36,185 nt of DNA from a virus. Positions 35,579 to 36,185 of this stretch are shown in pieces. Each line of letters starts with the position of its first letter. Position 1 is the first letter of the stretch. The stretch lies in the UHGV virus genome UHGV-0335474; one strand, 5' to 3'. Below the pieces are notes generated by a model that worked only from the letters and a program-made list of their open reading frames with translations, searched no databases and was not told the DNA's origin. A program made the position numbers and the translations under genes.

Positions 35579-36185
35579 TCACCCAAACGTCTCTTCAGGC
35601 CACTGGCTAGCGATAACTTTCCCCACAACGGAACAACTCTCATTGCATGGGATCATTGGGTACTGTGGGTTTAGTGGTTGTAAAAACACCTGACCGCTAT
35701 CCCTGATCAGTTTCTTGAAGGTAAACTCATCACCCCCAAGTCTGGCTATGCAGAAATCACCTGGCTCAACAGCCTGCTCAGGGTCAACCAGAATTAACAT
35801 CCCGTCAGGAAAACTAGGTTTGGATCCTGTTGGCGCGGTCATGGAATTACCTTCAACCTCAAGCCAGAATGCAGAATCACTGGCTTTTTTGGTTGTGCTT
35901 ACCCATCTCTCCGCATCACCTTTGGTAAAGGTTCTAAGCTCAGGCGAGAACATCCCGGCCTGAACATGAGAAAAAACAGGGTACTCATACTCACTTCTAA
36001 GTGACGGCTGCATACTAACCGCTTCATACATCTCGTAGATTTCTCTGGCGATTGAAGGGCTAAATTCTTCAACGCTAACGTTGAGATCCAGAATGAGCAA
36101 GAATTGGAGGCGTATAAATCTCGTTTCTCGGAAGGGGGTATCCCGGGTGACTTGAGCGTAGGTGACGCTATGTACAAGGACTTGG
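35579..36185 (-). CDS. cI: cI repressor, linker and C-terminal LexA-like (S24) domain; 5' end beyond the window
   Basis: [24 protein letters not shown]...HVQAGMF (Ala-Gly cleavage site)...GNSM...FKKL...[10 protein letters not shown], near-identical to the lambda cI C-terminal domain as recalled. The track M at 36100 is a TTG inside the gene. Confidence 0.8.

Follow-up and report, generated by a model that had tools for sequence, protein, structure and literature searches.

The right-hand end of virus genome UHGV-0335474 joins the repressor gene cI of a lambda-like phage to an internal fragment of a Parabacteroides distasonis gene, and it is very probably the product of a chimeric DNA fragment or read that extended a contig of a gut metagenome. 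We analysed the whole stretch of 36,185 nucleotides (nt), here called the window. Both partners in the joint are identified, the breakpoint between them is located exactly, the joint is absent from all other sequences searched, and prophages identical to the phage side carry an intact cI. From these observations we infer that the join arose outside any cell, in library preparation, amplification or assembly. The divergent cI N terminus is no genuine feature of the phage, which is otherwise of an ordinary lambda/HK97-immunity type. The case calls for caution, because what appears to be a divergent N-terminal domain at the contig edge is the antisense of a gene from another phylum; annotation of the tail as a hybrid or a disrupted repressor would be wrong.

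Layout of the window

Gene order in the window is that of a P22/lambda-type genome, circularly permuted. The window begins in the nin region, with dam and ninG, and runs through the late genes, int, the early-left genes, N and OL to a gene for a ParA-like ATPase and then cI. The stretch from the cI N terminus to ninB is missing, and the window therefore looks like a whole contig. The features on which the analysis turns are as follows.

1-10, no strand assigned: left-end fold-back, CCATCCGACT, the reverse complement of 11-20.
34135-34205, minus strand: operators OL1-OL2-OL3, identical to those of lambda (OL1 by an exact 17-mer match, OL2 and OL3 as read from the sequence).
35579-36086, minus strand: 3′ part of a lambda/HK97-type cI, comprising the last base of codon 69, codons 70-237 and the stop.
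36086/36087, no strand assigned: junction of the chimera, where the phage and Parabacteroides parents have 1 nt (A36086) in common.
36087-36185, plus strand: foreign tail, identified by blastn as an internal fragment of a P. distasonis SusC-type TonB-dependent receptor gene.

Both termini of the window carry non-native sequence. At the left end, positions 1-20 form a perfect 20-bp palindrome (CCATCCGACTAGTCGGATGG); homology to phage dam begins at base 11, and related phages differ from the window at 1-10. These first ten bases are a contig-end artefact.

Lambda-like cI sequence ends at position 36086

What is retained of cI comprises the linker together with the S24 domain for self-cleavage and dimerisation. 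On the minus strand, the DNA of 35579-36086 is 99.8% identical to HK97 cI and 97.6% identical to lambda cI (megablast), in agreement with an earlier note on this DNA, which had recognised the C-terminal part of the repressor as lambda-like. From N71 and the adjoining VSVEEF motif to the stop, the window protein is identical to residues 71-237 of HK97 cI, with which it shares N71 where lambda has K. A Pfam search placed Peptidase_S24 (PF00717) at residues 69-191 of the partial product (E = 4.9e-29). The C-terminal domain of a lambda-type cI is present in the window; an N-terminal helix–turn–helix (HTH) domain with its own start is not, codons 1-69 of cI being absent, and the TTG ‘start’ at 36100 simply reflects mechanical calling of the open reading frame. 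Compared with the cI proteins of HK97 and lambda, which are LexA-like and combine HTH_3 with Peptidase_S24, the window differs in that foreign DNA replaces the DNA-binding codons 1-69.

The break in similarity is abrupt. Megablast of 35400-36185 matched 102 phage records and 1,217 Escherichia coli records, and among the matches listed in both searches homology ends at 36086 (query base 687). In the aligned prophage relatives that reach the breakpoint, homology to the window likewise ends at 36086. Ungapped comparison of the two sides of the junction with a phage relative (L004) and with P. distasonis gave the following identities.

100 nt left of the junction: 100/100 with L004, 22/100 with P. 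distasonis.
99 nt right of the junction: 18/99 with L004, 98/99 with P. distasonis.

The count of 18/99, obtained by setting 36087-36185 against the cI N-terminal DNA of a relative that is 100% identical on the phage side, is at or below chance and leaves nothing of the patchy DNA similarity with indels that had been described upstream of the break. It also supersedes a MAFFT alignment of the tail with the 5′ parts of lambda and HK97 cI, which was gapped, forced and meaningless. The departure from lambda that had been placed upstream of about 36098 is real, and is not the artefact that the earlier note had allowed for; but the break itself lies at 36086/36087, and the foreign stretch measures 99 nt rather than about 85 bp.

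The cI frame stays open across 35579-36184 (minus strand), up to the window edge, and so extends 33 codons upstream of codon 70. An open frame of this kind would speak for a hybrid immunity repressor like the natural mosaic or imm-hybrid ones, with a lambda-type C-terminal domain and, in the same frame, a novel N-terminal domain for DNA binding; repressors of lambdoid phages are known to be built of modules that meet at the linker. As in natural or engineered hybrid immunity regions of the imm434 or imm21 type, the break is close to the point where the N-terminal domain gives way to the linker, and an exchange of modules would be conceivable there. The window differs from those hybrids in that the partner contains no repressor domain and the operators have not been exchanged.

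The tail is a fragment of a Parabacteroides receptor gene

In a blastn search of plasmid records, positions 36086-36185 matched P. distasonis NZ_OY725801.1 (232890-232989) at 99/100 positions, inside a gene annotated as encoding the TonB-dependent receptor WP_154396040.1. The tail corresponds to about codons 928-960 of this 1146-codon (3441-nt) gene, and the sole DNA difference, at 36136 (GGG versus GGA), is synonymous. The match begins at a first codon position (locus position 4001), and the plus-strand frame is therefore that of the receptor gene itself. Translation of the plus strand from 36086 resembled a SusC-type receptor motif, and the tail peptide is identical to WP_154396040.1 at 33/33 residues. 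The full receptor gene encodes STN, CarbopepD_reg_2 and Plug domains. Its neighbours are a FecR-family gene on one side and a RagB/SusD gene on the other, and a gene for an ECF sigma-70 factor ends upstream of FecR. The tail is thus identical in frame to an annotated gene that lies next to SusD, as expected of a SusC-type gene fragment. It differs from the receptor of this polysaccharide-utilisation-type locus in amounting to 100 nt only, in having neither gene start nor gene end, and in being joined to a phage.

Metagenomes confirm the assignment. A 25-mer of the tail is found exactly in 73 metagenome contigs, and every contig that names its source comes from a human-gut metagenome. All 73 match 36086-36185 at 96-100% identity, 20 of them at 100%, and all are collinear with the P. 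distasonis locus (median identity of 98.5% over a median of 5.7 kb). Each of the 71 contigs with room to do so continues into the Parabacteroides upstream sequence, 69 at an identity of at least 90% and two shifted by indels. No phage sequence (window 1-36085) occurs in any of the 73.

Elsewhere the tail was not encountered. Blastn with the last 106 nt (word size 11) was negative against 5,426 complete E. coli genomes and 50,697 phage records, and an exact 42-mer had no match in IMG/VR. Two exact patterns, the first of which spans the polymorphic base, had none among the species representatives of GTDB, in whose genomes the tail locus seems to be absent or different. The blastn result excluded three sources of the tail: an IS element, a further known lambdoid immunity module, and E. 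coli sequence bordering a deleted prophage. Internal rearrangement of the window was also ruled out, since a search for an inverted or duplicated copy of the tail within it returned only chance 8-10-mers.

At the protein level, Pfam assigned no family at E ≤ 10 to the three open readings of the tail, and a word-indexed protein search yielded no relatives for the plus-strand peptide (43-residue query) or for the peptide in the cI frame. Short queries can yield false negatives in such a search, and the plus-strand null is one, because the 33 residues stand unchanged in the P. distasonis protein; the DNA searches settled the identity of the tail. Judged from sequence, the ‘alternative N terminus’ in the cI frame is the antisense of a Bacteroidales SusC-type gene that is free of stops by chance. 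The tail encodes nothing functional.

Identical prophages carry an intact repressor

Relatives were fetched as contigs that encode exactly the ParA-like protein of the window, of 340 amino acids (aa), next to cI. Two of them, L004 and L009, are prophages in E. coli draft genomes and are 100% identical to window 33001-36086. Beyond the breakpoint, both contain an intact cI of 237 aa, the OR region and a 66-aa Cro; their cI differs from that of lambda only by T3A and K71N, as does HK97 cI. A 237-aa lambda-type cI is also encoded by seven further contigs with the same ParA-like neighbour, and a different, unrelated repressor of 235 aa by one (L007). Because the N-terminal domain of cI is present in relatives that are 100% identical, its absence from the window is a property of the contig end.

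The operators point the same way. Cognate operators of lambda specificity are present in the window as OL1-3, OR lying outside it, and the earlier note was right to call these sites exactly lambda-type. Since OL1-3 are exactly those of lambda, a cI with a lambda-type N-terminal domain is required, and this deduction, which the note had also drawn, is borne out by proxy in the 237-aa cI and the OR of the relatives. The extension that it had proposed, alignment of cI and OR with lambda beyond the window edge, can likewise be made by proxy, and the identical relatives support the presence of an ordinary lambda-immunity repressor in this phage. It is almost certain that the phage has a normal, complete cI with the N-terminal domain of lambda.

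The OR region of L003, L004 and L009 (3019-3118) is identical to that of lambda at 99/100 positions. The sole difference is a G-to-A change inside OR1 (TACCTCTAGCGGTGATA versus TACCTCTGGCGGTGATA).

Origin of the joint

A chimeric fragment or read would account for the right end as follows. The window would be a complete contig, that of a lambdoid phage of E. coli with immunity of the lambda/HK97 type, from a sample, most likely of human gut, that also held Parabacteroides; its co-occurrence with E. coli is assumed. In the chimeric fragment, cI would have been broken after codon 70 and joined, nearly bluntly, to an internal piece of the SusC-type receptor gene. The chimeric read would have been the only extension available at the contig end, and the contig would have stopped where that read ended, 99 nt on. 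In keeping with this, the joint lies 99 nt from the window end, within the length of one short read, with an overlap of 1 nt; both of its sides are near-identical to independent sequences that continue past the breakpoint; and the foreign part is short, terminal and free of any k-mer overlap of repeat size. Searches of the 5,426 E. coli genomes, the 50,697 phage records, IMG/VR, the 73 metagenome contigs and 10 prophage contigs with the same immunity region did not reveal the joint, and no gene with the chimeric partial product is on record. The window itself turned up neither in IMG/VR nor in the metagenome collections searched.

Blunt ligation chimeras arise in library preparation, without complementarity at the junction. 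The right end resembles ligation and whole-genome-amplification chimeras in that it unites unrelated templates with little or no homology and has a foreign part of read size at a contig end, and the short inverted fold-back at the other end of the window is a further likeness to whole-genome-amplification chimeras. Whole-genome amplification is known to produce inverted and template-switch chimeras as well (PMC1855051). MDA chimeras are mostly intramolecular inversions, usually with 2-21 nt of complementarity at the junction. This inversion type fits the left end of the window better than the right, which has more the look of an intermolecular chimera made by ligation or template switching. 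A junction of 1 nt is also compatible with illegitimate recombination in vivo.

A purely computational mis-join, made by software through a repeat common to the phage and Parabacteroides genomes, is quite improbable. Metagenome assemblers do produce inter-genome chimeras, and the window resembles a whole contig with odd termini; however, de Bruijn or overlap joins need a common k-mer, typically of at least 21 nt, whereas the overlap here is 1 nt and the parents are unrelated on either side (22/100 and 18/99). Because the parents have only that 1 nt in common at the joint, a chimeric physical fragment or read is needed as the bridge.

We regard as very improbable that the joint formed in vivo, by illegitimate recombination that put Parabacteroides DNA into the cI-OR region of an E. 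coli prophage, or in place of part of it, and disrupted its repressor. The joint is present in the sequence as given, nearly blunt junctions with overlaps of 0-1 nt are typical of illegitimate end joining, and E. coli and Parabacteroides have the gut as a common habitat, the named hits all being human-gut metagenomes. Yet the distance from the joint to the end of the contig is exactly one read-length, the contig stops within the foreign piece, and no E. coli, phage, Parabacteroides-type or same-immunity contig that was searched contains it. Identity to present-day sequences is 100% on the phage side and 98/99 on the Parabacteroides side, and values of 99-100% on both sides mean that no time has elapsed since the join. 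Moreover, a prophage with intact lambda OL/pL but without the cI N-terminal domain would be derepressed and could not be maintained as a lysogen, and a second artefact sits at the other end of the contig. If true, which is unlikely, a joint made in vivo would document cross-phylum capture of DNA inside a prophage. The disrupted cI that the earlier note had entertained is made improbable by a terminal, nearly blunt and unique joint, which points to a chimera made in vitro or in silico. Its suggestion of a recombination joint was correct in so far as phage DNA abuts foreign DNA, but the partner is a chromosomal gene from another phylum and the evidence is against a recombination event of the phage.

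That the open cI frame encodes a hybrid repressor, also proposed in the earlier note, has a vanishingly small probability, because the tail matches, at 98/99 positions, the sense strand of a SusC-type gene from another phylum, of which the in-frame peptide is the antisense, no HTH signature, Pfam signal at E ≤ 10, protein relative, recognisable alternative DNA-binding domain or repressor homologue was found, the exact lambda operators at OL1-3 were not exchanged along with the DNA-binding domain and would not be expected to be bound by such a protein, and relatives identical up to the breakpoint carry the lambda N-terminal domain.

A ParA-like gene beside cI

The gene that adjoins cI (34388-35410, minus strand) encodes a ParA/MinD-like ATPase of 340 aa with Pfam matches to AAA_31 and CbiA. 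It sits between cI and OL, the slot that rexA/rexB occupy in lambda. PADLOC had no match for the ATPase. None of the 5,426 complete E. coli genomes encodes it, and among phage records it occurs in one, Salmonella phage S.Inf 5-2 (93.9%). The exact protein is encoded in at least 24 assembly contigs, and nine of the ten of these that are shown have it next to a lambda-type cI, the tenth (L007) having it next to the unrelated repressor. The gene has the look of a mobile moron and is a candidate for a role in exclusion or defence.

Two palindromes with the half-site TGGTAAA in common, at 35447-35461 (TTTACCATTGGTAAA) and 35508-35524 (TGGTAAACGATTTACCA), are found in the spacer that separates the stop of cI from the ParA-like gene. 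A regulator or partner of the ParA-like ATPase may bind to them. On the other side of the gene, directly downstream of its stop, a GC-rich hairpin (cccggcactggggccggg) followed by T-rich sequence (34350-34385) has the appearance of a terminator; this stretch is common to other lambda-immunity phages, and records of the immunity region annotate a terminator there.
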